NCBI GenBank assembly: GCA_041661275.1
Contig: JBAZUU010000004.1
Span: 7,480-71,479, forward strand
Direction: 5' to 3'
DNA: 64,000 nt
Source: Parcubacteria group bacterium
GTDB lineage: Bacteria; Patescibacteriota; Minisyncoccia; Moranbacterales; UBA2206
Shown: one piece after another, positions 7,450 to 62,451 of the stretch
Numbering within the stretch: position 1 is the stretch's first letter
How the letters are laid out: the number at the start of each line of letters is the position of its first letter
Program-made: the position numbers and the translations under genes
The notes under the pieces: generated by a model
The model's input: only the letters and a program-made list of their open reading frames with translations
Told to the model about the DNA's origin: nothing
Database searches by the model: none

Positions 7450-8088
7450 ATGAAAATAAAAGTAATCCTCTTTGATTTTGGGCGGGTCTTGGCGGATTTT
7501 GATTTTATGAATTTTGCAAGAATTGTTGAAAAATTTTCTCTTTTATCCGCGGAAGAAATAGTGAAAAAAACAGTGGATAATAAACCGATGTCCAGATTTC
7601 AAAAAGGGCAAACTAGCCCGATGGAATTTTTTAGGGAGATGAAAAAAGAATTGAAAATGTCAGGTATGAAATATCAACAATTTAAATTTGCCTGGAACGC
7701 AGTGCTGGTTCATCCGGATAAAAAAACAGAAAAAATACTTTCCAGGATTAAACCAGATGTGAAAATATTAATTTTGTCTACCAACGATGCTTTACATTGG
7801 GGAAAAGAAAACAAATACAAAATGGTCAAAAGATATTTTCCTCTTTCCTGCCAAAGAGTACTGTCTCACAAAGTCGGGGCAGAAAAACCAGAGCTTAAAA
7901 TATACAAAAAAGCGCTTGGCCGCTATAACATTCCCGCTTCGCAGACTCTTTATATTGATGACAATAGGACGTATCTGGAAGCGTTTCAAAAATTGGGCGG
8001 CAATACGATATATTACAGTTGTCGGCTGCATTCGTTTGATTATTTAACAAGGGAACTGAATGAGTTCGGGGTTTTGAATAAAAATTAA
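7450..8088 (+). CDS. HAD-superfamily hydrolase
   Basis: N-terminal motif I ILFDFGRVL (DxG variant) and C-terminal YIDDN motif. Confidence 0.65.
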   Translation: MKIKVILFDFGRVLADFDFMNFARIVEKFSLLSAEEIVKKTVDNKPMSRFQKGQTSPMEFFREMKKELKMSGMKYQQFKFAWNAVLVHPDKKTEKILSRIKPDVKILILSTNDALHWGKENKYKMVKRYFPLSCQRVLSHKVGAEKPELKIYKKALGRYNIPASQTLYIDDNRTYLEAFQKLGGNTIYYSCRLHSFDYLTRELNEFGVLNKN

Positions 8089-8554: not shown

Positions 8555-9331
8555 ATGCCCACAAATAAACATTTTAGAGATATAAAAACTGGATTTTGCT
8601 TTCTTGATGAAACCGGACTCATTCATAGTGAACAGGATAGATTTTTTGCTCTGGGAATAATAAAATGTAATGATCCACAAAAATTATATAACAGGATAAG
8701 AAAGGTAAGAAGCAGATATAGATATGGCTAAGAACTAAAATGGTCTAATCTTGATCGAAAAATACGCTTTGATATAGCCAGAGAATTTGTTAATATATTT
8801 CTAACAGAGGACGCGAAATTTAATTGTATCATTCTTGATAAAAGTGAACTGGATTTTGAAAAATATTACGACAATAATCTATATAAAGTTTATAGGAATT
8901 TCACTATAGCTCTTTTGAAGTTAATTATCGGAAATAATCCTCAGGAAGTCCTAGTTGTTTTGGCTGATGATTATTTTTCTCCCGACGGAACCGACTTGGA
9001 AATTACGATTAAAAAATTCATTAATGATCACTATAAAAGGTTTGTTGTTGCTGGTGTATGTCAGATAAATTCCAAATGTTCAGATATTTTACAATTAACA
9101 GACTTACTTCTCGGAGCTATAGCCTATGATTTGAAAAAACAAAATAAACTAATAAAAAGGCAGACTGAATATAAAAGAAAATTTTTGAACTTTTTATATC
9201 AAAAACTGAAAATAAAAAAATCTTTTTTCAAAAATGGATTCGGTTTTAATACGAGAAATTATGTTCTGTCGGGAGATAAAATTAGAGCAACCATTTTTGA
9301 TTACCGCAGATCCAAGAGGAGGCGAAAATAA
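8555..9331 (+). pseudogene. DUF3800-family gene disrupted by frame changes and in-frame stops
   Basis: N-terminal part GFCFLDETG in frame 2 ends at TAA 8705; the middle segment ELKWSNLDRK... is in frame 1 (8731-8886); the C-terminal part ...CQINSKCSDILQLTDLLLGAIAY (DUF3800 DSKxSxxLQLADLLAGA-like motif) is back in frame 2 (8882-9331). Confidence 0.5.
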
Positions 9332-16400: not shown

Positions 16401-17047
16401 CAGTTGTCAGTGAAATCGACGGGAAGGTTTTGGAAATTGAAAATGTCGACAAAAATATTATTGTCAAAATTGAAGCGACTGACAAAAACAAGACAATCAA
16501 AGAATATCAACTTCCAGCTGGAACAACGGTCAAGGTGGCCACTGGTGATTTGGTCGGAAAGGGATCGCAACTCAATGAAGGTCACATCGATCTTAAAAAA
16601 TATTATAAGATCACTGGCTGGGAAGAAGTTTGTCGCTATATCATTCGGGAAATTCAGGAAGTGTATGCATCACAAGGTGAAGGTATCAACGACAAACATA
16701 TTGAAATTATCATTCGTCAGATGTTTTCTCGCATTAATATTTTGACCGAAGGCGATAGTAATTTCTTGGTTGGCGACATCACAGAAATAGACGAATTTAA
16801 TGAAGAAAACACTCGCGTCAAAGAGCGAAATGGCGAAATGGCCAAAGGTGAAAAAATGCTTCTTGGAATCACCAAAGTGGCTCTTTCCACTGAAAGTTTC
16901 CTCTCTGCGGCGTCTTTCATGGAAACCGCCCGCGTGCTCATCAATGCGGCTGTTGCCGGCAAAGAAGACAAGCTGCGCGGTCTCAAAGAAAACGTCATCA
17001 TCGGAAAACTTATTCCAGCAGGGACAGGGTTTCGGAATATAAAGTAG
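13457..17047 (+). CDS. rpoC: DNA-directed RNA polymerase subunit beta'
   Basis: 1196 aa; zinc-binding CYCGKYKRIRYKGIVCDKCGVEV, catalytic NADFDGDQMAVH, and a conserved C-terminus. Confidence 0.95.
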   Translation: MESISNTKISDFDSVRLKLASPEEILTWSHGEVTKPETINYRTQRYEKDGLFDERIFGPSRDWECYCGKYKRIRYKGIVCDKCGVEVTRSIVRRERMGHIKLATPVSHIWFLRGVPSKIGLALGMGVQDLERVIYFSSYIVHNVDEEQRERVMNQLDTEFKTKQKEIAKNFGANEKELKEKTEELKGAYKTLKDELKSLHRLKIISEVEYFNLSTRFGQVFTAGIGAESIRKILEGIDLKKEVDTLKKELLKEEVSDKKKILKRIKLFKGFINAGLHLEWMLPIAIPVIPPDLRPMVALDGGRFATSDLNDLYRRIINRNNRLKKLIEIGAPEVITRNEKRMLQEAVDALFDNSARRSQVSVAASTGQRRALRSLADTLKGKQGRFRQNLLGKRVDYSGRSVIVVGPKLKLHQCGIPKKMGLELFKPFIINKLIERELAYNVRSAGKMVEAEAEEAYDILDEIISHHYVLLNRAPTLHRLSIQAFQPVLIEGKAIQIHPMVCSAFNADFDGDQMAVHVPLTDKARWESGNLMLSAKNLLKPASGDPITTPTLDMVLGCYYITHISPNAKGEGKMFSTYEEAIMACELGHVDIRAKIKVLHDNEVLETSIGRIKLNLIMPEGFEYINHEMTKKELKVLVARVLELKGQEEAAQFVDRIKDLGFESVTNSGISWGMDDLIVPAGKKDIMIEAEKQVETVKKQYNMGLLTEEERKDKVIEIWNDSKNKITDLVRAGMDKEGPVYSMVYSKARGSESVVVQMSGMKGLMAGPTGETIELPVKSSFKEGLNVLEYFISTHGARKGMADTALRTATAGYLTRRLVDVAQDVIVREKDCHDKNGAFMYKEDSDRIGQSFAARIIGRVLLEDAVDPKTGEVVAAKGDMISKIQGEQIEKANMDKLKVRSIITCKTARGVCQKCYGMDLGRGHLVEIGQAVGIVAAQAIGEPGTQLTMRTFHIGGVAGTDITQGLPRVEEIFEARPPKGESVVSEIDGKVLEIENVDKNIIVKIEATDKNKTIKEYQLPAGTTVKVATGDLVGKGSQLNEGHIDLKKYYKITGWEEVCRYIIREIQEVYASQGEGINDKHIEIIIRQMFSRINILTEGDSNFLVGDITEIDEFNEENTRVKERNGEMAKGEKMLLGITKVALSTESFLSAASFMETARVLINAAVAGKEDKLRGLKENVIIGKLIPAGTGFRNIK
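16989..17047 (+). repeat. 59-bp direct repeat, copy 1 (the last 17 codons plus stop of rpoC)
   Basis: identical to 18326-18384: aaaacgtcatcatcggaaaacttattccagcagggacagggtttcggaatataaagtag. Confidence 0.9.
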
Positions 17048-17084
17048 ATTTTAGCTGTTAGCTTATAGCTTTTAGGATAGAAAA

Positions 17085-17184: not shown

Positions 17185-18318
17185 ATGAATTATATCCCAA
17201 GATTAATAACAAGTTCCATAGAAAATCGCTTATTTAAGGGAAAAGTCATAATTATCTATGGTGCCAGACAAGTTGGAAAGACCACTTTGGTCAAGAAAAT
17301 TTTAGAAAAATACAGTTCAAGTGGCGATTATTTGAACTGTGAGTTATTATCCGTCCGAAAAGGGCTTTCGGAACCGGAAGCGGTCAAGTTGAAAAAGTTT
17401 CTTGGAAATTATAAAATCATTGTTCTGGATGAAGCTCAAAACATTCCCAATATTGGATTAATTCTCAAAATAATTGTAGATACTTACCCAGAACTGCAGA
17501 TTATTGCTACCGGCTCATCCAGTTTTGATTTAGCGCAAAAAATTTCCGAACCCATGACAGGAAGAACCTTTACTTTTATGCTTTATCCAATTTCGTTAAG
17601 AGAAATTAGACAAAAAGAAAATTTAATCGAAGTAGAGGCAAAACTGGAAAGTTTGTTAAGATTTGGAAGTTACCCGGAAATACTGACTCTAAGTGAAGGT
17701 GAATCCAAGGAGCGTCTCAACGAAATCGCGTCCAAATATTTATATAAAGATATTTTAAGTTTCGAAGGTCTTAAGAAGGCTGATGTTATAAGAAATCTTC
17801 TGGAACTTTTGGCTCTTCAGTTGGGCAATGAAGTTTCTTATAATGAATTGGCCACAAAACTTGGAATTGATCGGTTAACCGTTCTAAAATATATAAATAT
17901 CTTGGAACAATCATTTGTTGTTTTTCGTCTAAGGGCTTTCAGTCGAAATCTTCGAAAAGAGATATCCAAATCGGTTAAAATATATTTTTATGATTTGGGC
18001 GTCAGAAACAGTATAATTGAAAGCTATAACCGGCTAGATGTAAGAAACGACACTGGAGCGTTGTGGGAAAATTTTTGTATCGTGGAAAGAAAGAAAAATA
18101 ACGAAAGCGATTTCCGATTTGTGAATTCATATTTTTGGCGCACATATGATCAAAAAGAAATTGATTATATCGAAGAAAAAGACGGCCAACTTCGTGGATT
18201 TGAATTTAAATGGAACGCGAAAAAGGACATAAAATTACCAAAAGAGTTTATAAAAAGCTACAACGCGACGGTGGAAAAAGTTGATCCGGAAAATTATTGG
18301 AAGTTTTTGAAACTATAA
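17185..18318 (+). CDS. AAA+ ATPase with a C-terminal DUF4143 domain
   Basis: Walker A GARQVGKTT; Walker B IVLDEAQ; C-terminal region typical of DUF4143 proteins. Confidence 0.75.
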   Translation: MNYIPRLITSSIENRLFKGKVIIIYGARQVGKTTLVKKILEKYSSSGDYLNCELLSVRKGLSEPEAVKLKKFLGNYKIIVLDEAQNIPNIGLILKIIVDTYPELQIIATGSSSFDLAQKISEPMTGRTFTFMLYPISLREIRQKENLIEVEAKLESLLRFGSYPEILTLSEGESKERLNEIASKYLYKDILSFEGLKKADVIRNLLELLALQLGNEVSYNELATKLGIDRLTVLKYINILEQSFVVFRLRAFSRNLRKEISKSVKIYFYDLGVRNSIIESYNRLDVRNDTGALWENFCIVERKKNNESDFRFVNSYFWRTYDQKEIDYIEEKDGQLRGFEFKWNAKKDIKLPKEFIKSYNATVEKVDPENYWKFLKL

Positions 18319-18325
18319 CGCGCAA

Positions 18326-18384
18326 AAAACGTCATCATCGGAAAACTTATTCCAGCAGGGACAGGGTTTCGGAATATAAAGTAG
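18326..18384 (+). repeat. 59-bp direct repeat, copy 2 (a non-coding duplicate of the rpoC 3' end)
   Basis: exact copy of 16989-17047; followed by its own hairpin/T-run at 18386-18416. Confidence 0.9.
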
Positions 18385-18460
18385 CTTTTATGGAAAAAAC
18401 GACTTGGCTTATCGTCAGGTCGTTTTTGTTTTGTAGAGTAGTAGTTGACTACAATTCCTT

Positions 18461-25589: not shown

Positions 25590-25735
25590 GCGGTTGAATA
25601 GAAAATGGAAATTGGTTCAAGAGAATGGAAATTAGAAAACAGTAAATCCAACTTCTATTTTCTATTTTTCCAGAACTTATTTCTATTTTCCAATCAACTA
25701 ATTTCTAGTGGGGGAGTTGCCAAGTTTTTACATTA
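25590..25735. repeat. imperfect palindromic intergenic element (family F; related copy at 45811-45933)
   Basis: shares ttctaatttcc, gaaaatagaa and ggaaatt blocks with 45811-45933. Confidence 0.5.
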
Positions 25736-29176: not shown

Positions 29177-29184
29177 GATCGTAA

Positions 29185-29260
29185 AACGCATAACGCATAA
29201 CGCATAACGTAAAAAGCAATAATTTGCGTTCCACGCTCCATGTTCTACGCTTCGCGACTA
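29185..29260. repeat. intergenic repeat family D (cataacg x3 ... gttccacgc...ctacgc)
   Basis: shares motif blocks with 39762-39836 and 62372-62451. Confidence 0.55.
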
Positions 29261-30560: not shown

Positions 30561-30567
30561 TTGTAGT

Positions 30568-30677
30568 CTCTACGAATTACGAATTGGTACGAATGTAACG
30601 AAATACGAATAATCGTTAATAAGGACAATTTAAAAAATCAATCGTTCGTACATTCGTAAAGGTTCGTATTTCGTAGA
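30568..30677. repeat. 110-bp palindromic element of family B (tctacgaattacgaa...ttcgtatttcgtaga) between rpsL and rpsG
   Basis: long inverted repeat; near-identical copy at 43631-43742. Confidence 0.8.
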
Positions 30678-30695
30678 GAAATAATTTAAACAAAC

Positions 30696-38504: not shown

Positions 38505-38565
38505 CGCGTAGCGTCATCCTGAGCGGAGTCCTGCTGAAAAGCAGGACGAAGTCGAAGGATCTAGT
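38505..38565. repeat. family A hairpin element, short form (half-unit), between rplW and rplB
   Basis: atgacgcgtagcgtcat palindrome + cgtcatcctgagcg + tcctgctgaaaagcagga hairpin + gaagtcgaaggatct. Confidence 0.8.
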
Positions 38566-38578
38566 ATAGGAAAATATT

Positions 38579-39760: not shown

Positions 39761-39761
39761 A

Positions 39762-39836
39762 TCGCATAACACATAACACATAACACATAACATCGGATTC
39801 GTATTTTGTTCCATGTTACGTGCTACGGGTTACGTG
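39762..39836. repeat. intergenic repeat family D (cataacacataac x4 ... gttccatgttacgtgctacgggttacgtg) abutting the rplV start
   Basis: same block structure as 29185-29260 and 62372-62451. Confidence 0.55.
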
Positions 39837-40417: not shown

Positions 40418-40508
40418 GTTAAAAAGTAAAAAGTAAAAGTTAAAAGTAAAGAAAAAATTAAACAGCTTCAAATATTTTGGACTTTTAATTTTTAACTTTT
40501 AACTTGAG
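40418..40508. repeat. AT-rich palindrome (ttaaaaagtaaaaagtaaaagttaaaagt ... acttttaatttttaacttttaa) between rplV and rpsC
   Basis: inverted repeat read directly. Confidence 0.5.
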
Positions 40509-41798: not shown

Positions 41799-42041
41799 AT
41801 GGAAAAGAATAATAATATTAGTGCTAAGAAAAAAGGAATTGTTGTCAGTGACAAAATGGCCAAAACCATTGTTGTGGCCGTGACTGAATTCAAGACTCAT
41901 CCCAAGTACAAGAAAAAATACAAATCAACCAACAGATATAAGGTTCATGATGAAGATAATAAGTATAAAGTTGGGGATGTTGTCGAGATCGTCCCGACTA
42001 AACCGATGAGCAAGGAGAAATTTTATAAAGTGACGACGTAG
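41799..42041 (+). CDS. rpsQ: 30S ribosomal protein S17
   Basis: conserved S17 sequence. Confidence 0.9.
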
Positions 42042-42096
42042 TCGTCATCCTGAGCGAAGTCCTGCTGAAAAGCAGGATGAAGTCGAAGGATCTATA
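42032..42096. repeat. family A hairpin element, short form, between rpsQ and rplN
   Basis: tgacgacgtagtcgtca palindrome + cgtcatcctgagcgaagtcctgctgaaaagcaggatgaagtcgaaggatct; nearly identical to 38505-38565. Confidence 0.8.
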
Positions 42097-42103
42097 CAAA
42101 TAT

Positions 42104-42469
42104 ATGATACAAGCAGAATCAAAACTAGTCGTAGCTGATAATTCTGGTGCCAAGATCATCGAGTGTTTCAAGGTGCTTGGCGGTTCAAGAAGGCGATATG
42201 CTGGTCTGGGTGATGTTATCGTGGCTTCCGTAAAGTCATCAGAACCTCGCGGAACAGTCAAAAAAGGCGAGGTAGTGAAAGCGGTGATAGTGAGACAACG
42301 AAAGGAATTTAGAAGAAAAGATGGTTCATATATCCGATTTGATGAAAATGCAGCGGTAATTGTTGACGGGAAAGATCCAAAAGGAACAAGAATTTTTGGG
42401 CCTATCGCGCGAGAATTGCGAGACCGGGGATATAGCAAGATAATTTCACTCGCTCCGGAAGTATTGTAA
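42104..42469 (+). CDS. rplN: 50S ribosomal protein L14
   Basis: [17 protein letters not shown] conserved; the ORF-track ATG at 42077 lies inside the repeat element. Confidence 0.95.
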
Positions 42470-42470
42470 T

Positions 42471-42552
42471 CTTTACTAATTACTAATTTTGTAAGAATAT
42501 ACCGATTGCGAATAAAGATTAGTATATTAGTATAAGATTCGTAATTAGTAAA
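42471..42552. repeat. family C palindromic element (ctttactaattactaatt ... aattagtaaag) between rplN and rplX
   Basis: near-identical copy at 44176-44262. Confidence 0.75.
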
Positions 42553-42572
42553 GAATAATTCATATTAAATTC

Positions 42573-42875
42573 ATGAAGATAAAAAAGAACGATATCGTGA
42601 TAATGCTTTCAGGAAAAGACCGCGGAAAAACGGGCAAGGTTTTGCGAGTGGTTGAGAAAGGAAAGGTTACGGTAGAAAATTTAAATACAGTCAAAAAACA
42701 TAAACGTCCCAGACGAGAAGGAGAAAAAGGTCAGCGAGTAGAAATCCCGAGATTGGTAGATATATCAAAAGTAGCGCTTGTTTGTCCGAAATGCGGAAAA
42801 GCGACAAGGATCGGCTATAAAATTTCAGGAGAGATAAAATCAAGATTTTGTAAAAAGTGTAAGAGTGAGATATAA
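42573..42875 (+). CDS. rplX: 50S ribosomal protein L24 with a C-terminal CxxC...CxxC zinc-ribbon tail
   Basis: KOW motif MLSGKDRGKTGKV; C-terminal CPKCGK...CKKCK. Confidence 0.85.
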   Translation: MKIKKNDIVIMLSGKDRGKTGKVLRVVEKGKVTVENLNTVKKHKRPRREGEKGQRVEIPRLVDISKVALVCPKCGKATRIGYKISGEIKSRFCKKCKSEI

Positions 42876-42879
42876 AATA

Positions 42880-43422
42880 ATGGAAAATATTCGAGAAAAA
42901 TATTATAAAAAAGCCCTGCCGACAATGAAAAAAGAATTCGGGCTCAAAAATGACCTGGAAGTTCCTAGAATCACCAAGGTGGTTGTTAATACTGGAATAG
43001 GAAAATTTATCAAAGACTCTTCTTCTGTTGAGGAAATTCAAAAAGCCTTGACCGCTGTTACAGGACAAAAAGCGATAATGGTGAAAACCAGAAAGTCTAT
43101 TGCCGGATTCAAGACAAGAGCGGGACTGGAAGTGGGAGTGAAAGTGACTCTTCGTGGTCCTCGAATGTGGAGCTTTTTGGAAAAATTAGTCGGAGCTGCT
43201 ATGCCTCGCATCCGGGACTTCAGAGGAATTAAGCTGACATCAGTGGATAGCAATGGTAATTTAAACATTGGCCTCAAAGAACATACGATTTTTCCGGAAA
43301 TTTTGCCGGAGTCAGTGAAAAATATTTTCAGTTTGCAAGTGAATGTTACCACTAACGTAAGAAATAGAGATATGGGAATAGCATTATTTAGAAATTTAGG
43401 TTTTCCAATAGAGCATAAGTAA
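42880..43422 (+). CDS. rplE: 50S ribosomal protein L5
   Basis: conserved L5 sequence. Confidence 0.95.
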   Translation: MENIREKYYKKALPTMKKEFGLKNDLEVPRITKVVVNTGIGKFIKDSSSVEEIQKALTAVTGQKAIMVKTRKSIAGFKTRAGLEVGVKVTLRGPRMWSFLEKLVGAAMPRIRDFRGIKLTSVDSNGNLNIGLKEHTIFPEILPESVKNIFSLQVNVTTNVRNRDMGIALFRNLGFPIEHK

Positions 43423-43444
43423 TAAGAAATAGTTGTTAAATTTT

Positions 43445-43630
43445 ATGGCAAAGAAATCCGTAGAAGCAAGAGCAAGAAAAAAACCGAAATTCTCAACAAG
43501 AATAGTCAGGCGCTGTTGGAAGTGCGGAAGAAAACACGGTTATCTTCGTCAGTTTGACATTTGCCGGATTTGCTTTCGGGAATTAGCCAGTACCGGTCAG
43601 ATTCCGGGAGTAAAAAAGTCCTCATGGTAG
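43445..43630 (+). CDS. rpsN: 30S ribosomal protein S14 type Z (61 aa, zinc-binding)
   Basis: [20 protein letters not shown] conserved. Confidence 0.9.
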
Positions 43631-43742
43631 TCTACGAATTACGAATTAGTACGAATGTAACGAAATACGAATAGTAGTAAATGTGACAAAAGTTAAATTC
43701 AATTATTGTTCGTACATTCGTAAAGGTTCGTAATTCGTAGAC
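43631..43742. repeat. 112-bp palindromic element of family B between rpsN and rpsH
   Basis: arms identical to 30568-30677 with a different loop. Confidence 0.8.
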
Positions 43743-43769
43743 CAAGAGATTAAATTAAACTAATCAAAT

Positions 43770-44171
43770 ATGGATAAAATTGCAGAAATGCTAACATCAA
43801 TAAGGAACGCCCAGATGGCCGGGCACAAGGAAGCGAAAATAAGCGCCTCCAAGTTGAAGTTGGCCGTGGCCAAGATCCTGGAAAAAGAAGGCTTTTTAGA
43901 ATTTGCCAATGTGGAGCAGGAAAATAATTTCAATGTGATAAAGGTCGGGCTGAAATACCATACGATCTCCCGGACAAAAAGGCTGCCGGCGATAAACGGA
44001 TTGGAAAGGGTGAGTAAAGAAGGACAAAGAGTATATATAAAGAAAAAAGACATAAGAAATGTAAAAAATAATTACGGTTTAGCTATTATTTCCACTTCCA
44101 AGGGCGTAATGACCGGAGAAGAATCTAAAAAACTCGGCTTGGGAGGGGAATATATATGTAAAGTCTGGTAG
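43770..44171 (+). CDS. rpsH: 30S ribosomal protein S8
   Basis: conserved S8 sequence. Confidence 0.95.
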   Translation: MDKIAEMLTSIRNAQMAGHKEAKISASKLKLAVAKILEKEGFLEFANVEQENNFNVIKVGLKYHTISRTKRLPAINGLERVSKEGQRVYIKKKDIRNVKNNYGLAIISTSKGVMTGEESKKLGLGGEYICKVW

Positions 44172-44175
44172 TAAT

Positions 44176-44262
44176 TCTTTACTAATTACTAATTTTGTAC
44201 GAATATACCAATTACGAATAAAAAAATTAGTATATTAGTATAAGATTCGTAATTAGTAAAGA
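44176..44262. repeat. family C palindromic element between rpsH and rplF
   Basis: copy of 42471-42552. Confidence 0.75.
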
Positions 44263-44291
44263 AAGAAATTAACTAAAAATCAGGAAATTAT

Positions 44292-44846
44292 ATGAGCAAG
44301 ATCGGCAGAAAATTAATAACTATTCCAGAAGGCGTGGAAGTCAAGATTGATGGACAAGTTCTGGAGGCTAAAGGTTCAAAAGGAACACTGTCTTTGATCA
44401 TTAACTCAAAAGCAAAGGTGGAAATTGAAGGCAAAGAAATAAAAGTTACCAAAGGCGACCTCGATGATTCTTCCAGAGAATCGGGAGCGGTTTGGGGACT
44501 GACCCGGTCGCTGGTAAATAATATAATCATTGGTGTGTCTCAGGGTTACCAAAAAAAATTAGAACTGCAGGGAGTAGGCTTTCGGATGAGTGTTCAGGGA
44601 AAGAAAATTGTTTTGGCGCTCGGTTTTTCTCATCCGGTAGAAAAGGAGATTTCTGAAGGACTCGAGGCAAAAATAGAAGAAAATAATGTTTTGAGCATTA
44701 CTGGAATAGACAAGCAAAAAGTTGGCCAATTTGCGGCCGAAGTACGATCTTTGAAACCTGTCGAACCATACAAAGGAAAAGGATTTAGATATCAGGGAGA
44801 AAAAGTAAGAAGAAAAGCGGGAAAGAAAGCGGCCACCGCGAAATAA
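44292..44846 (+). CDS. rplF: 50S ribosomal protein L6
   Basis: conserved L6 sequence. Confidence 0.95.
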   Translation: MSKIGRKLITIPEGVEVKIDGQVLEAKGSKGTLSLIINSKAKVEIEGKEIKVTKGDLDDSSRESGAVWGLTRSLVNNIIIGVSQGYQKKLELQGVGFRMSVQGKKIVLALGFSHPVEKEISEGLEAKIEENNVLSITGIDKQKVGQFAAEVRSLKPVEPYKGKGFRYQGEKVRRKAGKKAATAK

Positions 44847-44849
44847 AAC

Positions 44850-44931
44850 GATGCTAATCCACGAATAAAGGCGAATCTGCTAATCGCTAATTCGCAATTA
44901 GCGGATTAGTATATATTAGCAGATTAGCATC
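44850..44931. repeat. nested palindrome (gatgctaatc...gattagcatc) between rplF and rplR, related to family C
   Basis: perfect outer 10-bp inverted repeat and an inner ctaatcgctaatt/aattagcggattag pair; shares the gattagtatatattag core with family C. Confidence 0.65.
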
Positions 44932-44944
44932 ACTTGAAAAAATT

Positions 44945-45289
44945 ATGAAAAATAGTAGAAACAATTTAAGACTCCATAGAAAAAGGCGCATTCGAGCCAA
45001 GGTTTCCGGTACGGCTAAAAAACCGAGACTGGCGGTCTTTAAGAGTCTTATGAGTATCGAAGCCCAACTGATCGATGATGCGAAAGGAATAACTTTGCTT
45101 CACAGTCACAGCAAGAATTTGAAGATTAAAAACGGTATCGAGGGAGCTAAAAAAGTTGGGACGGATATTGCTAAAAAAGCTCTCGCTAAAAAGATCACTG
45201 AAGCGGTTTTTGATAGAGGCGGATATAAATATCACGGAAAAGTAAAAGCGGTGGCGGAAGGCGCGCGAGAAGGTGGACTTAAGTTCTAA
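44945..45289 (+). CDS. rplR: 50S ribosomal protein L18
   Basis: conserved L18 sequence. Confidence 0.9.
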   Translation: MKNSRNNLRLHRKRRIRAKVSGTAKKPRLAVFKSLMSIEAQLIDDAKGITLLHSHSKNLKIKNGIEGAKKVGTDIAKKALAKKITEAVFDRGGYKYHGKVKAVAEGAREGGLKF

Positions 45290-45306
45290 ATTATACGTTT
45301 ATATTT

Positions 45307-45810
45307 ATGGCGAGAGACAATAGCAGAAAATTTAAGGGAAAAAGAGAAAAGCCGGAATTTGACCAGAAGCTTTTGGATTTGGCGCGCGTTACCCGTGTGG
45401 TCAAGGGCGGAAGACGTTTTCGTTTTCGAGCGACCTTGGTTATCGGCAATAAGCGCGGCAAAGTAGGTGTCGGAGTCGGGAAGGGTGGAGATGTTTCTGA
45501 TGCTATCAAAAAAGCCTATGATGACGCCAGAAAGCATATGGTTATTGTTCCTATGAAGGATAATACTATTGCTCATGATATTTTCCATAAGAAAGGAAGC
45601 GCCAAGATTATGTTGAAGCCTGCTCACAAAGGAAGAGGAATAGTGGCTGGCGGAGCGGTGCGCGCAGTGGTAGAGTTTTCCGGAATAAAGGATATTGTTT
45701 CGAAATCACTCGGAACATCAAATAAGATCAATGTGGCGAGGGCTACTATTGAAGCGTTAGAGATGCTTAATTATTCAAGACTAAGAAAAATAAATCAGGA
45801 AGGAAATTAG
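45307..45810 (+). CDS. rpsE: 30S ribosomal protein S5
   Basis: conserved S5 sequence. Confidence 0.95.
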   Translation: MARDNSRKFKGKREKPEFDQKLLDLARVTRVVKGGRRFRFRATLVIGNKRGKVGVGVGKGGDVSDAIKKAYDDARKHMVIVPMKDNTIAHDIFHKKGSAKIMLKPAHKGRGIVAGGAVRAVVEFSGIKDIVSKSLGTSNKINVARATIEALEMLNYSRLRKINQEGN

Positions 45811-45933
45811 TTTATTGGAAATCAAAAATTAGTTCCAGAAATTGGAAAAGGGAAAATAGAATTTCATCTTTCCAGTTTCTAATTTCCTGAACCATTTTCA
45901 AATTTCTATTAAACTATTTTCTAAAAAATAATT
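45811..45933. repeat. family F imperfect palindromic element between rpsE and rplO (where rpmD/L30 would normally sit)
   Basis: related to 25590-25735. Confidence 0.5.
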
Positions 45934-46359
45934 ATGCAATTACATTCACTAAAATTAAAGATGAAGCGCAAAAAAAGAAAGACTATCGGACGTGGCGGGA
46001 AAAAGGGGACATATTCCGGAAAAGGAATGAAGGGACAAAAGGCGCGTAGCGGGGCTCACGTTAAACCTATGTTTGAAGGTGGACGTTCAACTTTGATCGA
46101 TCACATGAAAAAGAAACGAGGGTTCAGATCTCCTCATGCCAAAAAAGTGATCGTGAAATTGTCGGCAATCGACAAAAAATTTAAGGATGGGGACGAGATT
46201 AATGCCGAGGCTTTGATAAAAGCAGGTTTAATTGATAAGATAGAGGCGAGGAACGGAATTAAAATCCTGGGTGGCGGAAAAGAGACAAGCAAAAAATTCA
46301 CTTTTGATAAGAAAATATTTCTTAGCGGTTCTGTTTCAAAGTCCCTAAAGAAAGCATGA
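45934..46359 (+). CDS. rplO: 50S ribosomal protein L15
   Basis: conserved L15 sequence. Confidence 0.9.
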   Translation: MQLHSLKLKMKRKKRKTIGRGGKKGTYSGKGMKGQKARSGAHVKPMFEGGRSTLIDHMKKKRGFRSPHAKKVIVKLSAIDKKFKDGDEINAEALIKAGLIDKIEARNGIKILGGGKETSKKFTFDKKIFLSGSVSKSLKKA

Positions 46360-47642: not shown

Positions 47643-48293
47643 ATGAATATTGTTATTCTTGGTCCGCAAGGCAGCGGTAAAGATACGCAAGCGGAAAAAA
47701 TAGCGGAAAAATTCCATCTGGAAATCATTCATATGGGGAAGTTTTTGCGCGAAGTGGCGAAGCAGGATACGCCGCTTGGGAAAGAGGTGTATCATTACCA
47801 AAATGAGATAAACGAAATGGTGCCTTCACGGATTTTGAAAGAAGTTCTGCATATGAAAATTATGTCTTATTCCCGCGAGCAGGGAATTATGTTTGAGGGA
47901 GTGCCAAGAACTATGGATCAGGCTCTTTACTTTGATGAAGCAGTTTTGGAATCAGGCCGGAAGATCGATGCTGTAATCAACCTTAAATTGTCAGAGGAAG
48001 AAGCGGTCAAGCGAATTTCCATAAGAAGAATTTGTGAAAAATGCAAAAAACTATATATTTTAGGAAAAGATATAGAAGAGGGAGAAAATTGTCCTGATTG
48101 TGGTGGAAACATTATCCAGCGGATTGATGATACTGATGCGGGAATCAAAAAAAGACTAGAAGTATTCAATAAAGAAACTCTGCCGGTAATCGAGCATTAC
48201 AAAAAGAAAGGAAATCTGGTAGAAATAAACGGCGATCAATCGATCGAAAAAGTTTTTGAAGAAATTATTGGAAAATTAAAAAGCGTAGAGTAA
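47643..48293 (+). CDS. adk: adenylate kinase (zinc-lid form)
   Basis: GPQGSGKDTQ P-loop; LID with CxxC...CxxC. Confidence 0.9.
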   Translation: MNIVILGPQGSGKDTQAEKIAEKFHLEIIHMGKFLREVAKQDTPLGKEVYHYQNEINEMVPSRILKEVLHMKIMSYSREQGIMFEGVPRTMDQALYFDEAVLESGRKIDAVINLKLSEEEAVKRISIRRICEKCKKLYILGKDIEEGENCPDCGGNIIQRIDDTDAGIKKRLEVFNKETLPVIEHYKKKGNLVEINGDQSIEKVFEEIIGKLKSVE

Positions 48294-48436
48294 CCCGTCA
48301 TTCTGAGCGAAATGACGACGACGTTAGTCGGAGGAATGAAGTCGAAGAATCTGCCAAAAGTTAGCACTGGTGGTAATTTATAGTAGATCCTTCGACTACG
48401 TCCAATAAGAATTGGACTTCGCTCAGGATGACGTAT
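48294..48436. repeat. family A element, full-length (about 140-bp inverted duplication), between adk and map
   Basis: left arm cgtcattctgagcg...gaagtcgaagaatct; right arm agatccttcgactacgt...cgctcaggatgacg. Confidence 0.85.
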
Positions 48437-48440
48437 TATT

Positions 48441-49202
48441 ATGATTATTATTAAAACCCAGGAAGAAATAGAAAAAATGCGTGAAGGCGGGCATAAACTC
48501 GCCGAGATTATGGATGAGATTGGAAAAGCGGTTCGTCCCGGACAAAATACGCATGAAATTGATGAGCTCTCAAGACGGCTCATTTTTGATATCGGCGGTA
48601 TTCCCATTTTTGAAGGCTATGGAGGTCCCGAAAATCCCTATCCGGGCGCTGTCTGCGCGTCTATTAATCATGAGGTGGTTCATGGTATTCCCCGGAAGGA
48701 TAGAATTTTAAAAGAAGGTGATGTCTTGAAAATCGATATCGGGATGAAATACCGAAACCTCATCACTGATATGGCGCGCACATTTCCTGTCGGAAAAGTA
48801 TCGCCGGAGGCGTGGAAGCTGATGAAAGCGACGAGAGAGAGTCTGAACATGGGGATTAGCAAACTTAAAGCCGGTGCTAAATTGTCAGAGTATTCCCAGG
48901 CTGTCGAAAGTTATGTCCGCGCCAATGGATTTTCTGTCATTCGGGAACTGGTCGGGCACGGAGTGGGATATGAGCTTCACGAAGATCCGCAGATCCCTAA
49001 TTATACATCCAATGCGAAAGATATAATTTTGAAAGAAGGAATGACGCTGGCACTTGAACCGATGATAAACGTAGGGACAGAAAAGATAAAGTTGCAAAAA
49101 GACGGTTGGACATATGTGACGGCGGATGGAAAATTGTCCGCGCATTTTGAAGATACGATTGTCATAACTAAGGGCGGGGTGGAGATACTAACTAGAAAAT
49201 AA
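48441..49202 (+). CDS. map: methionine aminopeptidase type I
   Basis: conserved MetAP motifs. Confidence 0.9.
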   Translation: MIIIKTQEEIEKMREGGHKLAEIMDEIGKAVRPGQNTHEIDELSRRLIFDIGGIPIFEGYGGPENPYPGAVCASINHEVVHGIPRKDRILKEGDVLKIDIGMKYRNLITDMARTFPVGKVSPEAWKLMKATRESLNMGISKLKAGAKLSEYSQAVESYVRANGFSVIRELVGHGVGYELHEDPQIPNYTSNAKDIILKEGMTLALEPMINVGTEKIKLQKDGWTYVTADGKLSAHFEDTIVITKGGVEILTRK

Positions 49203-49341
49203 CCGTCATTCTGAGCGGAATCGAGTCCGTTAGGACGAGATGAAGTCGAAGAATCTGCCAAAGGTTAGCACTTGTGGTAAATTATAGTAGATCCTTCGAC
49301 TACGTTCGGATAAAATCCTCACTACGCTCAGGATGACGGGA
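49203..49341. repeat. family A element, full-length
   Basis: central region nearly identical to 48294-48436 (gccaaaggttagcacttgtggtaaattatagta). Confidence 0.85.
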
Positions 49342-49432
49342 AAAAGAGAATAAAAAAACACCCGGGAGTTTCCACGATTACGATGTAACGTGTGAAAACC
49401 CGCCGGGGTAGATGGTTTTCCGCCGTGAAATT

Positions 49433-49816
49433 TCAACGGCGATTCCAATATGGAGGTCGAGGGACGCTGTGAGTTATCTCGCATCCGTCAGGGAATACAA
49501 GAGTAACATCATCGCAGGGTATTGGGGATTTCGGCCAAGGCATTGGCTTTCTCCATTGTCCAGTAAGATTTTCCCACCAGACATTTCTCTTTAAGAACGA
49601 CCCCCATCTGGTGAGTTGATAGATCACCACGAGACCGCCCACGATTCCGGGCAGTAATTTTACGATAATCGGCCACGTTGCGACATCGGGTGAAGTGAAT
49701 GCCTCCCAGGAGATCTTCACAAAATAGATGCCCAACAGAACGACTCCAAATTCTACCCAGAATCCCTCATCTTTGCTTTCTTTAATGTGCTGATTTTTTT
49801 TCACTGATTCCTCCAA
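49433..49816 (-). CDS. hypothetical membrane protein
   Basis: 127-aa minus-strand ORF with two hydrophobic helices. Confidence 0.4.
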   Translation of the reverse strand: MEESVKKNQHIKESKDEGFWVEFGVVLLGIYFVKISWEAFTSPDVATWPIIVKLLPGIVGGLVVIYQLTRWGSFLKRNVWWENLTGQWRKPMPWPKSPIPCDDVTLVFPDGCEITHSVPRPPYWNRR

Positions 49817-49918
49817 GCATGTGGTTAAAACCGTTAAAACTTGTGAAAATCAGAACCGATCTCTCATCTGCCAACTAACCTACTATTATACTACAATTAT
49901 CACAAAAAATCAATACCT

Positions 49919-50380
49919 ATGTCAAATGAGCCTGAAATAAGCCACATTTTGGGGGTAGATTATGGCCGAGCCAAAATTGGCCTGGCCATGGCCGACAGTG
50001 AGACTCGGATGGCTTTTGTCTATGGGACAATTGAAAATAACAAGGGATTATTTCGAAAACTGGCGGAAATCATCGAAAAAGAGGGCGTAACAAAAGTGAT
50101 TGTTGGCGTGCCCGGGTTTAGGAATCAGGGAGATGAGGCTCGCCTCGATTCGACGAGACGCCTCATCGAGTCGAAGCGGGGTAATCAGGAGATTTATAGG
50201 GGGTTTGGCGAAACGCTTAGGAAAAATTTACCCGGAGTAGAAATTGTTTTTGTTGATGAAATGTTTACTACCAAGATGGCGCAGGACAATCTGAAAGAGA
50301 CGGGAATGAAAAATATTCAGAGGTCAGATGACAAGGAAGCAGCGAGGATAATTTTGCAGAGCTGGCTAGATTCTAAATAA
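49919..50380 (+). CDS. ruvX: Holliday-junction resolvase-like nuclease YqgF/RuvX
   Basis: ILGVDYGRAKIGLAMAD N-terminus and VIVGVPGF motif. Confidence 0.7.
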   Translation: MSNEPEISHILGVDYGRAKIGLAMADSETRMAFVYGTIENNKGLFRKLAEIIEKEGVTKVIVGVPGFRNQGDEARLDSTRRLIESKRGNQEIYRGFGETLRKNLPGVEIVFVDEMFTTKMAQDNLKETGMKNIQRSDDKEAARIILQSWLDSK

Positions 50381-50516
50381 CACCGTCATTCCGAGCGGAA
50401 TCCGCTTTAAGCGGATGAAGTCGAAGAATCTGCTAATTAATATTACTAGTGCTATTTGTAAGTAGATCCTTCGACTTCGTTCGGATAAAATCCTCACTTC
50501 GCTCAGGATGACGGGC
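50381..50516. repeat. family A element, full-length
   Basis: same arms as the other full-length copies; loop differs. Confidence 0.85.
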
Positions 50517-50591
50517 CTATTGTATGTTTTGAAAAAACACGAATTATGTTACAATTGAACTACGAAATAACCATTAATCATATAAAAGAAA

Positions 50592-51359
50592 ATGGAAAAT
50601 AAACCATATCTGTCTGTTGTCTTCTCTGCGTACAATGAGGGTGGCAGAAAAGGAGAGGAATTAAGAAAAAATCTTGAAGAAATAGGAAAATATTTAGGAG
50701 AAAAACAAATCTCCTATGAAGTTGTCGCGATAAATGACGGGTCAAAAGACAACACCGTAGAGGTTTTGAAAGAACTCTCTCCTTTGGTTAGCAAGCTGGA
50801 AATTATTGATCGCAAAGAAAATAGAGGAAAATGGTATTCTTTGCGTGAAGGATTTTTAAAAGCCAGGGGAAAATATAGATTATTGGTAGATGCTGATGGA
50901 GCAACATCGATCACTAATATGGAAGGTTTTTGGTCACACATGGAAAAAGGGGAAGATATTATCATTGGATCAAGGGATTTAAGTGAATCAAAAATAGAAA
51001 AACATCAACCAAGATGGAAAGAGATTATGGGCGATGCTGGCAACCTGCTCATCCAATTTATGCTAGGACTTCGAGGGATAAAAGACACTCAATGCGGTTT
51101 CAAGGTAATTTCCGAAAAAGCAACAAATGATATTATTACTCGAATGAAAGTGGATAGATGGGGCGGGGATTTTGAAATGATGGCTCTCGCTCGGAAGCTT
51201 GGATATAAATTTGTGGAAGTGCCGGTAGTTTGGGTGGATGCCGGCCAGAGCTTGGTTGGAGCAAAGGGTCTCGGTGGTTACGGCTCAACTCTCAAAGAGC
51301 TTTTTCAGGTGAAGCTGAATATGATGATGGGTAGATACCATCTACATAAGAAACAATAA
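50592..51359 (+). CDS. family-2 glycosyltransferase (dolichyl/polyprenyl-phosphate sugar transferase-like)
   Basis: LSVVFSAYNEG, VVAINDGSKDNT, LVDADG (DxD) motifs. Confidence 0.75.
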   Translation: MENKPYLSVVFSAYNEGGRKGEELRKNLEEIGKYLGEKQISYEVVAINDGSKDNTVEVLKELSPLVSKLEIIDRKENRGKWYSLREGFLKARGKYRLLVDADGATSITNMEGFWSHMEKGEDIIIGSRDLSESKIEKHQPRWKEIMGDAGNLLIQFMLGLRGIKDTQCGFKVISEKATNDIITRMKVDRWGGDFEMMALARKLGYKFVEVPVVWVDAGQSLVGAKGLGGYGSTLKELFQVKLNMMMGRYHLHKKQ

Positions 51360-51521
51360 AAAAGCGAGAAACCCCGCACCAAATTCCAGTATAGATTTGC
51401 TTAGTGTATAGTTGAGTGTGCGTGGTCGCCTGCGGCTTAAAATAGAAATAAAAAATAGTCTTTCGAGCGAATTGGTGCGGGGTCTCATTTTTGTAACCAC
51501 TCGCCAAGCTCGCGGACAAAA

Positions 51522-52541
51522 ATGGAAAAGGAGACAAAAAAACAAAAAAATTCAGAGCTGCGCCAAGATATTGTGACGGGGGATTGGGTGGTAATTTCTA
51601 CCGCTCGAGCCAAACGTCCGAAAGAGTTTGCGGAACATGGGCGTGAGCCGGTCATTGAAGATCCGGACAAGGTTTGCATTTTCTGTCATCCGGAGGAAAC
51701 CGGACAGGAAAAAGATGTTTTGATATACCAAAACGCGGATGGCGACTGGAGTCTTCGCGTTATTCCCAATAAATTTCCGGCTTTTTCCCGTCCTGTTGGC
51801 GGGCTTATGAAACATAAAGAGGAGGGACCGTATTTTCATATGGATGCTATCGGTTATCATGAAATTATCATCACCCACGACCATAAGAAGTCGTTGGCGC
51901 AATTGGATAAATATCGCGCAGCCGAAGTTGTTGACGCTTACCAGGACAGGTACATCGATCTCATGAATAAAAAGAGCGTCAACTATATCGAGATTTTTCA
52001 CAATCATGGCAAGGAAGCGGGAGCTTCTGTCGGTCATCCGCATTCACAATTAGTGGCTATTCCCGTCATCTCGCCATATATCAAGGGCGAGCTGGACGGC
52101 GCGGAAGAATATCATAAAATGAACAAAGCTTGCGTCTATTGCGCGATGCTCGAGTGGGAACTGGAACATAAAAAAAGAATAATTTTTGAAAACGATTCAT
52201 TTGTCGCTTTTTGTCCTTTCTCCTCGCGTGCGGCATTTGAAGTCTGGGTGATGCCCAAAAAACATAAACCATATTTTGAAAGGACGTCAGTTGACGACAA
52301 AGTACTGGCGGGAGAAACATTGCAGGTGGCGCTTAGCAAAATTTTCAAGGGATTAAATGACCCGCCATATAATTTTTATATGCACACCGCGCCCTGCGAC
52401 GGCAAAGATTATCCACATTACCACTGGCATATAGAGATTTTGCCGAGAATGTCCACATGGGCAGGGCTGGAATATTCAACCGGCATTGAAATCTCAACTA
52501 TTGAACCGGAGGAAGCGGCCAAGTTTCTAAGAGAGAATTAA
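51522..52541 (+). CDS. galT: galactose-1-phosphate uridylyltransferase
   Basis: CxxC zinc site CIFCHPEE and HPHSQL active-site motif. Confidence 0.8.
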   Translation: MEKETKKQKNSELRQDIVTGDWVVISTARAKRPKEFAEHGREPVIEDPDKVCIFCHPEETGQEKDVLIYQNADGDWSLRVIPNKFPAFSRPVGGLMKHKEEGPYFHMDAIGYHEIIITHDHKKSLAQLDKYRAAEVVDAYQDRYIDLMNKKSVNYIEIFHNHGKEAGASVGHPHSQLVAIPVISPYIKGELDGAEEYHKMNKACVYCAMLEWELEHKKRIIFENDSFVAFCPFSSRAAFEVWVMPKKHKPYFERTSVDDKVLAGETLQVALSKIFKGLNDPPYNFYMHTAPCDGKDYPHYHWHIEILPRMSTWAGLEYSTGIEISTIEPEEAAKFLREN

Positions 52542-53790: not shown

Positions 53791-53914
53791 CAGGTTTAAA
53801 ATTTTTGAATTTTTAATTTTATAATTTTGTAAATAAATCCAAATTTTTAATGTTTAAACATTTGGAAATTAAAAATTATTTAAAAATTAAAAATTACAAA
53901 ATTAAAAATTTTGT
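53791..53914. repeat. AT-rich palindromic spacer between tpiA and fba, centred on gtttaaac
   Basis: inverted repeats of aaaattaaaaatt-type words. Confidence 0.5.
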
Positions 53915-55221: not shown

Positions 55222-55358
55222 CGTCGTCATTCTGAGCGGAATGAGACCTTTGGTCGAATGAAGTCGAAGAATCTACCAAATAATATTACCGGTGATAATT
55301 CCTGGTAGATCCTTCGACTACGTCCCAATAAGAATTGGGACTTCGCTCAGGATGACGG
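55222..55358. repeat. family A element, full-length, between hoxE and hoxF
   Basis: arms identical to the other copies. Confidence 0.85.
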
Positions 55359-55377
55359 TTTTTTGTTAAATTATTAA

Positions 55378-62371: not shown

Positions 62372-62451
62372 TAGAATCGCATAACGCATAACGTAAAACG
62401 CGTAACGACAATAATCCGTTCCACGCTACGCGCTCTACGTTCCACGATAAT
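62372..62451. repeat. intergenic repeat family D abutting the gap start codon
   Basis: cgcataacgcataacg...cgtaacg...gttccacgctacgcgctctacgttccacg. Confidence 0.55.

Follow-up and report, generated by a model that had tools for sequence, protein, structure and literature searches.

The ribosomal-protein operons of a Parcubacteria group bacterium (GTDB lineage Patescibacteriota; Minisyncoccia; Moranbacterales; UBA2206) carry long imperfect palindromes in their intergenic spacers, and these hairpin repeats have the look of insertions that the operons tolerate, not of a conserved control element. They lie in a stretch of 64,000 nucleotides (positions 7,480 to 71,479 of the forward strand of contig JBAZUU010000004.1, assembly GCA_041661275.1), which is called the window here. 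Coordinates refer to the window unless they follow a contig handle with three digits, such as L084; ribosomal proteins have one or two digits. We consider it probable, with some reservation, that the palindromes are a dispersed, fast-turnover, non-autonomous repeat built from heptamers, similar to repetitive extragenic palindromic (REP) sequences or miniature transposable elements with inverted repeats (MITEs), which would be co-transcribed with the operon and tolerated there since its folding takes it out of the way.

Pfam searches identified the S10-spc ribosomal-protein gene row of a Patescibacteria genome in the window, including S17 (41799-42041), L14 (42077-42469), L24 (42573-42875), S14 (43433-43630), S8 (43770-44171), L6 (44292-44846), and L18 (44945-45289) as well as L5, S5, and L15; no L30 gene was found in this row. 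An earlier note on this DNA had described three palindromes, here termed C1, C2, and E, in the rplN-rplX, rpsH-rplF, and rplF-rplR spacers, and their coordinates, sequences, and flanking genes (L14/L24, S8/L6, and L6/L18 by Pfam) were as described. C1 (42470-42554, + strand) is an imperfect palindrome of 85 nt that begins immediately 3' of the TAA stop codon and ends 18 nt 5' of the next ATG; its inverted arms (42467-42502 and 42522-42557) are 36 nt long and 83% complementary. C2 (44175-44263, + strand), an imperfect palindrome of 89 nt, begins 3-4 nt past the stop codon and ends 28 nt 5' of the ATG, with arms of 39 nt (44175-44213 and 44225-44263) that are 87% complementary. E (44850-44931, + strand) is a nested palindrome of 82 nt with arms of 41 nt (44850-44890 and 44891-44931) that are 76% complementary. 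The three spacers had been called consecutive, but the L24-L5, L5-S14, and S14-S8 spacers lie between the first and the second. The list was also incomplete, since a fourth and larger hairpin, D2 (43630-43742, + strand, 113 nt), had been missed in the rpsN-rpsH (S14-S8) spacer. D2 is built from TACGAAT and ATTCGTA units, and the G of the TAG stop codon is its first stem base. Its sibling D1 (30567-30681, + strand) is located in the str operon, in the rpsL-rpsG spacer (S12 and S7 by Pfam).

C1, C2, and E are each predicted to form a single long imperfect hairpin as RNA. The calculated folding energies were -30.0, -31.9, and -31.5 kcal/mol, with z-scores of -8.6, -9.4, and -6.2 against 200 dinucleotide-preserving shuffles, none of which folded as well. 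D2 and D1 gave -45.7 kcal/mol (z -8.9) and -43.1 kcal/mol (z -7.9), respectively. The stems of the elements comprise 30-45 pairs, and their G+C content is 20-38% without G-runs. Three independent assemblies (two from ENA samples and one from JGI) showed no mismatch to the window over C2 and E, and one of them likewise over C1. Because the sequences are identical base for base in contigs from three different samples, the hairpins are not an assembly artefact.

The near-identity of C1 and C2 was borne out by alignment: their 5' parts (42470-42516 and 44176-44222) are 94% identical and their 3' parts (42514-42555 and 44222-44263) 98%. The arms of D1 and D2 are 86-92% identical. Alignment scores compared with those of shuffled sequences gave z values of 17 for both C1-C2 and D1-D2, 5-6 for C-D, 3-4 for C-E, and about 1 for E-D. 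With a covariance model derived from 11 family-C sequences, exactly five sites in the window were matched, namely C2 (90 bits), C1 (88 bits), D2 (51 bits), D1 (45 bits), and E (39 bits). The earlier note had presented its three hairpins as related through a common core. C and E do share the core GATTAGTATAT..ATTAG, but E proved to be only a distant cousin with the unit motif in common, and no copy of C. Judged by these scores, C and D form one superfamily with E standing further away, and D2 is the closest relative of C within the operon, closer than E. The fold was retained in all 11 aligned family-C members, so the fold conservation that the earlier note had looked for was found; the paired columns of family C are nearly invariant, and covariation is therefore uninformative either way.

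Copies of the elements were also present outside the spc operon. The census of element copies and transposase genes in this genome covered about 83 kb (the window and adjoining stretches) and yielded two C, three D, one E, and one TACAAAA-type copy, all of them intergenic. The third D copy (L208 4800-4878), 2.2 kb to the left of the window, lies in a divergent intergenic region upstream of metK and not behind a stop codon. The hairpin with TACAAAA units, which has the C/D architecture, occupies the NusG-L11 spacer (L207 16408-16504), 6.9 kb to the right of the window.

Comparison with relatives indicated a rapid turnover. We compared the orthologous operon from 80 species-level genomes, the nearest of which are Moranbacteria with S8 proteins at most 68% identical, and from five closer metagenome contigs (L084, L085, L086, L087, and L206) with the same gene order and with L6 78-88% identical. 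The spacers orthologous to the filled ones measure 6-30 nt in these closest relatives, in agreement with the premise of the earlier note that spc spacers are normally short. Thus, the L14-L24 spacer is 103 nt in the window, where it holds C1, versus 6 nt in L084 (TAA AAATTT ATG) and 14 nt in L087; the S8-L6 spacer with C2 is 120 nt versus 30, 24, 22, and 18 nt in L084, L085, L206, and L087, respectively; the L6-L18 spacer with E is 98 nt versus 9 nt in L085 and 17 nt in L087; and the S14-S8 spacer with D2 is 139 nt versus 24-26 nt in L084 and L086, if S8 of L084 is assumed to start at the earlier in-frame ATG. The reverse was observed for the L18-S5 spacer, which is 17 nt in the window and 106, 126, and 96 nt in L085, L086, and L087, each holding a hairpin of a different family; that of L086 contains an E-like element. 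L087 carries four near-identical copies of another family in four spacers, and the same family occurs six times in L027 (S8 62% identical). Seven near-identical copies were found in different spacers of L038.

When stems of at least 18 pairs were counted, hairpins were present in 93 of the 1202 spacers of the 80 genomes and at 15 of the 17 spacer positions. No hairpin was found in 41 genomes, a few genomes had 5-8, and the genome of the window has 7. This pattern of presence and absence is that of elements gained and lost and not that of a conserved operator. With empty spacers at the orthologous positions of near relatives, there is no indication that the elements regulate this operon in particular. 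The spacer that remains outside the stem has a median length of 13.5 nt, compared with 11 nt in empty spacers, and is 18, 28, 31, and 16 nt for the four elements of the row in the window; these lengths fit pure insertion. As a side observation, the L206 contig of the closest relative (L6 88% identical) ends at position 992, 6 nt past the L6 stop codon and hence at the L6-L18 spacer; a repeat at this site may have broken the assembly.

Public metagenome contigs were scanned for the ends of family C (TTACTAATTAC, 40-70 nt, GTAATTAGTAA), and at least 118 stretches of two kinds were obtained. Among the matches listed, at least nine on other metagenome contigs were true family-C members with the full architecture. 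They were located between LigA and GatC, between a solute-binding protein and PGI, between ArgRS and a glycosyltransferase, between two nucleotidyl-transferase genes, after L11, and before RecO, and about half of the members listed were oriented each way relative to the flanking genes. The elements are therefore not specific to the spc operon, within which the earlier note had framed them, and the further copies that it had called for do exist, both in the same genome and elsewhere. The remaining matches were inverted arrays of the heptamer AATTAC[N] around unrelated centres, in contigs of 29-61% G+C. One such array (L098 2420-2483) begins at the first base behind the der stop codon, on a contig of 58% G+C whose Der protein is closest to those of Anaerolineae/Chloroflexota. 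Inverted AATTAC[ACGT] arrays outside Patescibacteria were also seen in L088, L094, and L100, the OCZT01 genome has at least seven such loci (contigs L097, L102, L106, L113, L125, L157, and L160), and at some loci arrays stand on both sides of a terminator-like G+C hairpin with a T-run.

The elements have a modular anatomy. C and D share ends of the form CT[CT]TAC...GTA[AG]AG, followed inward by two TAC[GT]AAT units, a spacer of 4-5 nt, two more units, the loop, and the mirror image of the whole, and the same architecture was present in the covariance-model matches from other Moranbacteria. The units read TAC[GT]AAT on one arm and ATT[AC]GTA on the other, and those of E are GCTAAT and ATTAGC with a period of 8 nt. 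The period is general: in 200 arms of 100 hairpins from 40 genomes, the mean autocorrelation was 0.43 at lag 7 and 0.39 at lag 14, compared with 0.31 in shuffled arms, and the peak fell at lag 7 in 71 arms and at lag 8 in 32. For C, the 5' arm gave 0.40-0.46 at lag 7 and the 3' arm 0.46-0.51 at lag 8; E peaked at lag 8. The unit sequence itself varies by family (TACGAAT, AAAAGTA, CATAACG, GGAAATT, AGCGAAC, and others). Unit number varies as well. The 5' arms of the six L027 copies are extended next to the loop by zero, one, or two 8-nt units; the 3' arm is invariant.

Within family C, six of the seven unit positions are nearly invariant across the 11 members, whereas the fourth varies freely. 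This fourth base was mismatched across the stem (G.A, T.C, or C.A) in 29 of 33 cases, at alignment columns 15/85, 27/74, and 35/66 (42484/42540 in C1 and its equivalents). About 11 matches would be expected under independent draws and 4 were seen, a difference that is suggestive only, as the sequences are related. Family D has a matched G-C at the fourth position.

Other families of the same class occupy further spacers of this genome. A hairpin of 103 nt with a 7-nt period and GGAAATT/TTCTATT units (45811-45913, + strand) lies in the rpsE-rplO spacer, where L30 is missing, and has siblings in the spacer between a RodZ-like gene and RecA (25592-25699) and in the L11-L1 spacer (L207 16937-17101). 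A hairpin of AAAAGT[AT] units (40418-40503, + strand) in the rplV-rpsC spacer showed a lag-7 autocorrelation of 0.72; it has a sibling at 53797-53913, and its family also occurs in the L18-S5 spacer of L085. Runs of the heptamer CATAAC[AG] without a partner arm were found at 39761-39795 (S19-L22 spacer) and 29178-29223, and such runs were also listed at 62376-62451. A near-identical run in L013 (4659-4740; S8 63% identical) belongs to another spacer, L14-L24, where an imperfect partner arm accompanies it.

Taken together, these results suggest the following course of events. An element would be copied into intergenic spacers of the same genome; its length changes by slippage of whole units, and it is gained and lost rapidly between related genomes. 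In the S10-spc-str rows it would insert just behind a stop codon, and it is almost certainly transcribed with the operon. The hairpins start at a median of 3 nt past the upstream stop codon, and a median of 8.5 nt separates their end from the next start. Once transcribed, the insert would fold into one long hairpin whose base brings the distance from stop to start back to about the original. With the insert looped out, the gene row would keep working and the insertion would be tolerated, and such looping-out would account for the accumulation of palindromic insertions, and of no others, where genes are tightly coupled in a row. Effects on the mRNA, such as a barrier to 3'-exonucleases or a site of double-strand cleavage, would then be a by-product and not the reason for the presence of the elements.

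Several observations weigh against a mobile repeat that is merely tolerated. No transposase or integrase gene was detected in about 83 kb of this genome in the Pfam tables or among ten atypical open reading frames (ORFs) searched against Pfam, and the same tables contain no REP-associated tyrosine (RAYT, Y1) transposase flanked by repeats. No consistent target-site duplication was found at C1, C2, D1, or D2 or at the copies in L007, L009, L029, and L035. TA or TAA stands on both sides of the L027 copies in some cases only, which is not above chance in such A+T-rich flanks, and when filled and empty orthologous sites were compared, the spacers were too diverged to align and no flanking repeat was seen. 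The density of copies per family is modest, with seven C/D/E-type copies in about 80 kb. Furthermore, the C/D architecture has been kept across genomes whose S8 proteins are only 50-68% identical, which implies a sequence-specific constraint that pure junk would not need; recognition by a copying enzyme would supply one. Finally, 59 hairpins lie nearer the stop codon and 21 nearer the start codon (p 2.5e-5; 25 versus 8 when counted per genome, p 0.005), a bias that could reflect function. Given the lack of target duplication, an enzyme recognising single strands or hairpins, or template switching, fits better than a classical cut-and-paste transposase. A hairpin-specific single-strand enzyme, although not seen here, is the simplest candidate for recognising the conserved architecture.

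The bias toward stop codons leads to the alternative that the hairpins are selected mRNA elements, which would block exonucleases, mark the transcript for cleavage into units, or enforce translational coupling; in the last case, a terminating ribosome would have to melt the 5' arm and so free the 3' arm beside the next start. Stabilisation of upstream mRNA by REP sequences and cutting of Correia hairpins by RNase III are established precedents, the stems of 30-45 pairs suffice for a double-strand-specific nuclease, and RNase Y is encoded adjoining the window. In the window, the sense strand folds better than the antisense strand for C1 (-30 versus -19 kcal/mol), C2 (-32 versus -28.5 kcal/mol), and D2 (-46 versus -35 kcal/mol). 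However, this preference did not extend to the whole set, in which the sense strand folded better for 36 hairpins and the antisense strand for 27, with the two about equal for 37; G-U pairs numbered 238 versus 205 in the comparison of sense with antisense, and all seven L038 copies folded better in antisense. The lack of a sense-strand preference gives no indication that the mRNA fold as such is under selection. The empty orthologous spacers of close relatives, together with the 41 genomes devoid of hairpins, mean that no gene depends on them. The two orientations of the family-C copies relative to their neighbours, and the D copy upstream of metK, also argue against a selected role. We therefore regard it as unlikely that such a role accounts for the elements, and possible that it exists as a secondary effect.

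The conserved architecture could also be taken further than a tolerated repeat would require. The CT[CT]TAC...GTA[AG]AG hairpins might be an undescribed kind of element that is recognised in its folded, single-stranded form by a dedicated protein and whose architecture is conserved across Patescibacteria; the related AATTAC[N] arrays of Chloroflexota would then be counted with it. In one version, it could be a new mobile element moved by a hairpin-specific enzyme of its own that has so far escaped notice. In another, it could be a switchable RNA device, an array of 7-nt sites for a protein of the cold-shock or S1 type, which opens or closes the hairpin between stop and start and so tunes coupling or the stability of the segment in the ribosomal-protein operons. 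We hold this proposal to be rather doubtful.

Local generation without any mobile step would be suggested by the period itself: slippage would make the heptamer arrays, a template switch would invert a copy, and the likeness between loci would result from the same process or from gene conversion. The 7-nt period is indeed general although the units differ by family, copies differ by whole-unit insertions or deletions, and one-armed heptamer runs exist (39761-39795; the L6-L18 spacer of L086; the S14-S8 spacer of L087). According to Mrazek 2007, as cited in PMC4679880, heptanucleotides outnumber every other kind of long simple repeat in many bacteria, an excess ascribed to polymerase slippage. 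On the other hand, the non-repetitive parts of the elements (loops, spacers, and ends) are 86-98% identical between loci, and the complex architecture recurs at non-orthologous sites of distant genomes, which independent slippage would not reproduce. Local generation as the whole explanation is thus improbable.

The TAC.AAT and ATT.GTA units could instead be arrays of protein-binding sites, either for proteins of the cold-shock or S1 type on RNA (about 7 nt per domain) or for a DNA-binding protein on the duplex, with the hairpin as a side effect. The near-invariance of six of the seven unit positions in family C, with a free and mostly mismatched fourth base, fits such sites, and the AATTAC[N] arrays right after stop codons in the Chloroflexota contig of 58% G+C are consistent with them, as is the binding of CspB to heptamer repeats with one protein per unit (PMC4679880). 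Nevertheless, unrelated units (AAAAGTA, CATAACG, and GGAAATT) occur in the same genome, so one sequence-specific protein cannot explain the class; the fourth position of family D is a matched G-C, and no candidate protein was identified. These points make binding arrays a very improbable origin of the hairpins.

Terminators, attenuators, or autoregulatory spc sites, such as an operator for S8 or an L protein, are close to excluded despite the strong stem-loops between ribosomal-protein genes: no T-run follows any stem (the tails read ATAATTC, AAGAAAT, CCAAGAG, and ACTTGAA), a promoter and terminator scan found nothing terminator-like in or next to the elements, 7-9 internal terminators would starve the distal genes, the same elements stand between non-ribosomal genes, no Rfam leader was matched, and neither position nor structure nor sequence is conserved even at 78-88% L6 identity, with orthologous spacers empty in L084, L085, L087, and L206. 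The spc operon of E. coli is regulated through an S8 site on the mRNA. The evident terminators of this genome consist of a short G+C-rich stem and a T-run behind it. The region gave no more promoter-like matches than shuffled sequences, and none fell within the elements. Rfam gave no match at the gathering threshold over the whole window and nothing usable at E <= 1 in 41900-46000 and 48200-51600; below threshold, D2 matched only plant and animal miRNA-precursor models (28 bits versus the 83 needed), which like any long hairpin. CRISPR-like and TIGR-array readings were also rejected, as neither a spacer-repeat array nor associated genes were seen.

Other repeats and genes were noticed nearby. 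A second repeat family, 'CGTCATYCTGAGCG...GAAGTCGAAGRATC', occurs at 38505-38578, 42042-42076, 48294-48440, 49203-49340, 50381-50520, and 55222-55360. No Rfam match was obtained for it. It has a short form, found in the L23-L2 and S17-L14 spacers (L084 shares the copy of the S17-L14 spacer at the orthologous site), and a long nested form of about 140 nt that folds at about -66 kcal/mol. A structured element of about 160-200 nt (CCCGCACCAAATTCC ... GAATTGGTGCGGG ... TTTTTGTA.C.ACTCGC..GCTCGC.GACAAAA) is found at 51360-51521, where it has no Rfam match, and at L005 3208-3377, L016 5447-5636, 5823-5994, and 7885-8089, L029 188-362, and several sites in L056. It is intergenic in several Moranbacteria, including ribosomal-protein spacers, and its class differs from that of the heptamer hairpins. 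A direct repeat of 65 nt (16989-17053 and 18326-18390, 98% identical) duplicates the 3' end of rpoC around an AAA_14/DUF4143 ATPase gene (17185-18318), which looks like an insertion at the rpoC end with a target duplication. A decayed gene probably lies at 8555-9233, where an ORF of 58 aa weakly matches DUF3800 and the next 500 nt contain no ORF.

The genomes of Patescibacteria are known to be small and densely packed. In the present genome, about one in four intergenic gaps contains a long palindromic repeat, and in the most conserved bacterial gene row 7 of the 17 gaps do. If the hairpins are tolerated palindromic insertions, streamlined genomes would still tolerate or harbour selfish repeats, and these operons would offer a natural way to gauge the amount of structure that can be accommodated between a stop and the following start codon under translational coupling. 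Such insertions would also explain likely assembly breaks and noise in spacer length in the ribosomal-protein marker regions used for binning and phylogeny. The 7-nt period across unrelated units and the AATTAC[N] arrays in Chloroflexota bear on the question of why heptamers dominate the simple repeats of bacteria.

A full-text search of an incomplete literature collection returned no description of such repeats in Patescibacteria, and several known systems resemble them in part. Integron attC sites are imperfect hairpins of 57-141 nt that directly follow ORFs, and conserved mismatches distinguish one of their strands. The elements here likewise follow ORFs and have conserved mismatches, but an attC identity was rejected because they lack the core sites RYYYAAC/GTTRRRY (their ends are CTTTAC/GTAAAG), they are flanked not by cassettes but by ribosomal-protein genes in a fixed, conserved order, and no integrase was seen. 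Correia/NEMIS elements of Neisseria, ERIC, and other bacterial MITEs are intergenic and co-transcribed, measure about 100-150 nt, have long inverted ends, and form mRNA hairpins cleavable by RNase III. Long inverted ends, intergenic location, and hairpin formation are common to them and to the elements here; Correia-type MITEs have a TA or other target duplication and known parent insertion sequences, neither of which was seen here.

The REP/BIME/REPIN group, known from enterobacteria and pseudomonads (PMC3116915), comprises extragenic imperfect palindromes that are multi-copy, dispersed within a genome, and of fast turnover, without target-site duplication, and the elements here share all of these features. 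Both often lie within operons just after a stop codon, and those repeats are co-transcribed, as is likely here. REP sequences are about 20-40 nt long with a conserved GTAG head; the present elements are 82-113 nt, A+T-rich, and built from 7-8-nt units, and GTAG occurs in them only inside the D stem. Their copy density per family is also lower, and no RAYT transposase was found in about 83 kb.

Among heptamer repeats, the TAACTGA family of Beggiatoaceae, cyanobacteria, and Bacteroidetes consists of direct repeats, with one 'indirect' set in 170, for which a post-transcriptional role via a single-strand-binding protein has been suggested (PMC4679880). Like the elements here, these are intergenic heptamers near start codons with a patchy distribution across phyla; unlike them, they form no hairpin. 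The STRR heptamers of Calothrix and Nostoc can be grouped with such simple-repeat arrays as a related system. Most specifically, the elements resemble the GGGAATC heptamers of Xanthomonas, of which 70-75 inverted array pairs can form stem-loops (Rehm et al. 2015, PMC4692102). Both have tandem units of 7 nt, convergent arrays close together in intergenic DNA that pair into a stem-loop, and lengths that differ between related strains. The Xanthomonas units are G-rich, quadruplex-capable, and arranged in perfect tandem runs, whereas here two plus two imperfect, A+T-rich units per arm, which lack G-runs, are separated by a fixed spacer. What distinguishes the present elements from the known systems is this A+T-rich, fixed 2+2 architecture with conserved ends and loops, the copying of whole elements between loci, and their location directly after stop codons within ribosomal-protein operons of a streamlined genome.

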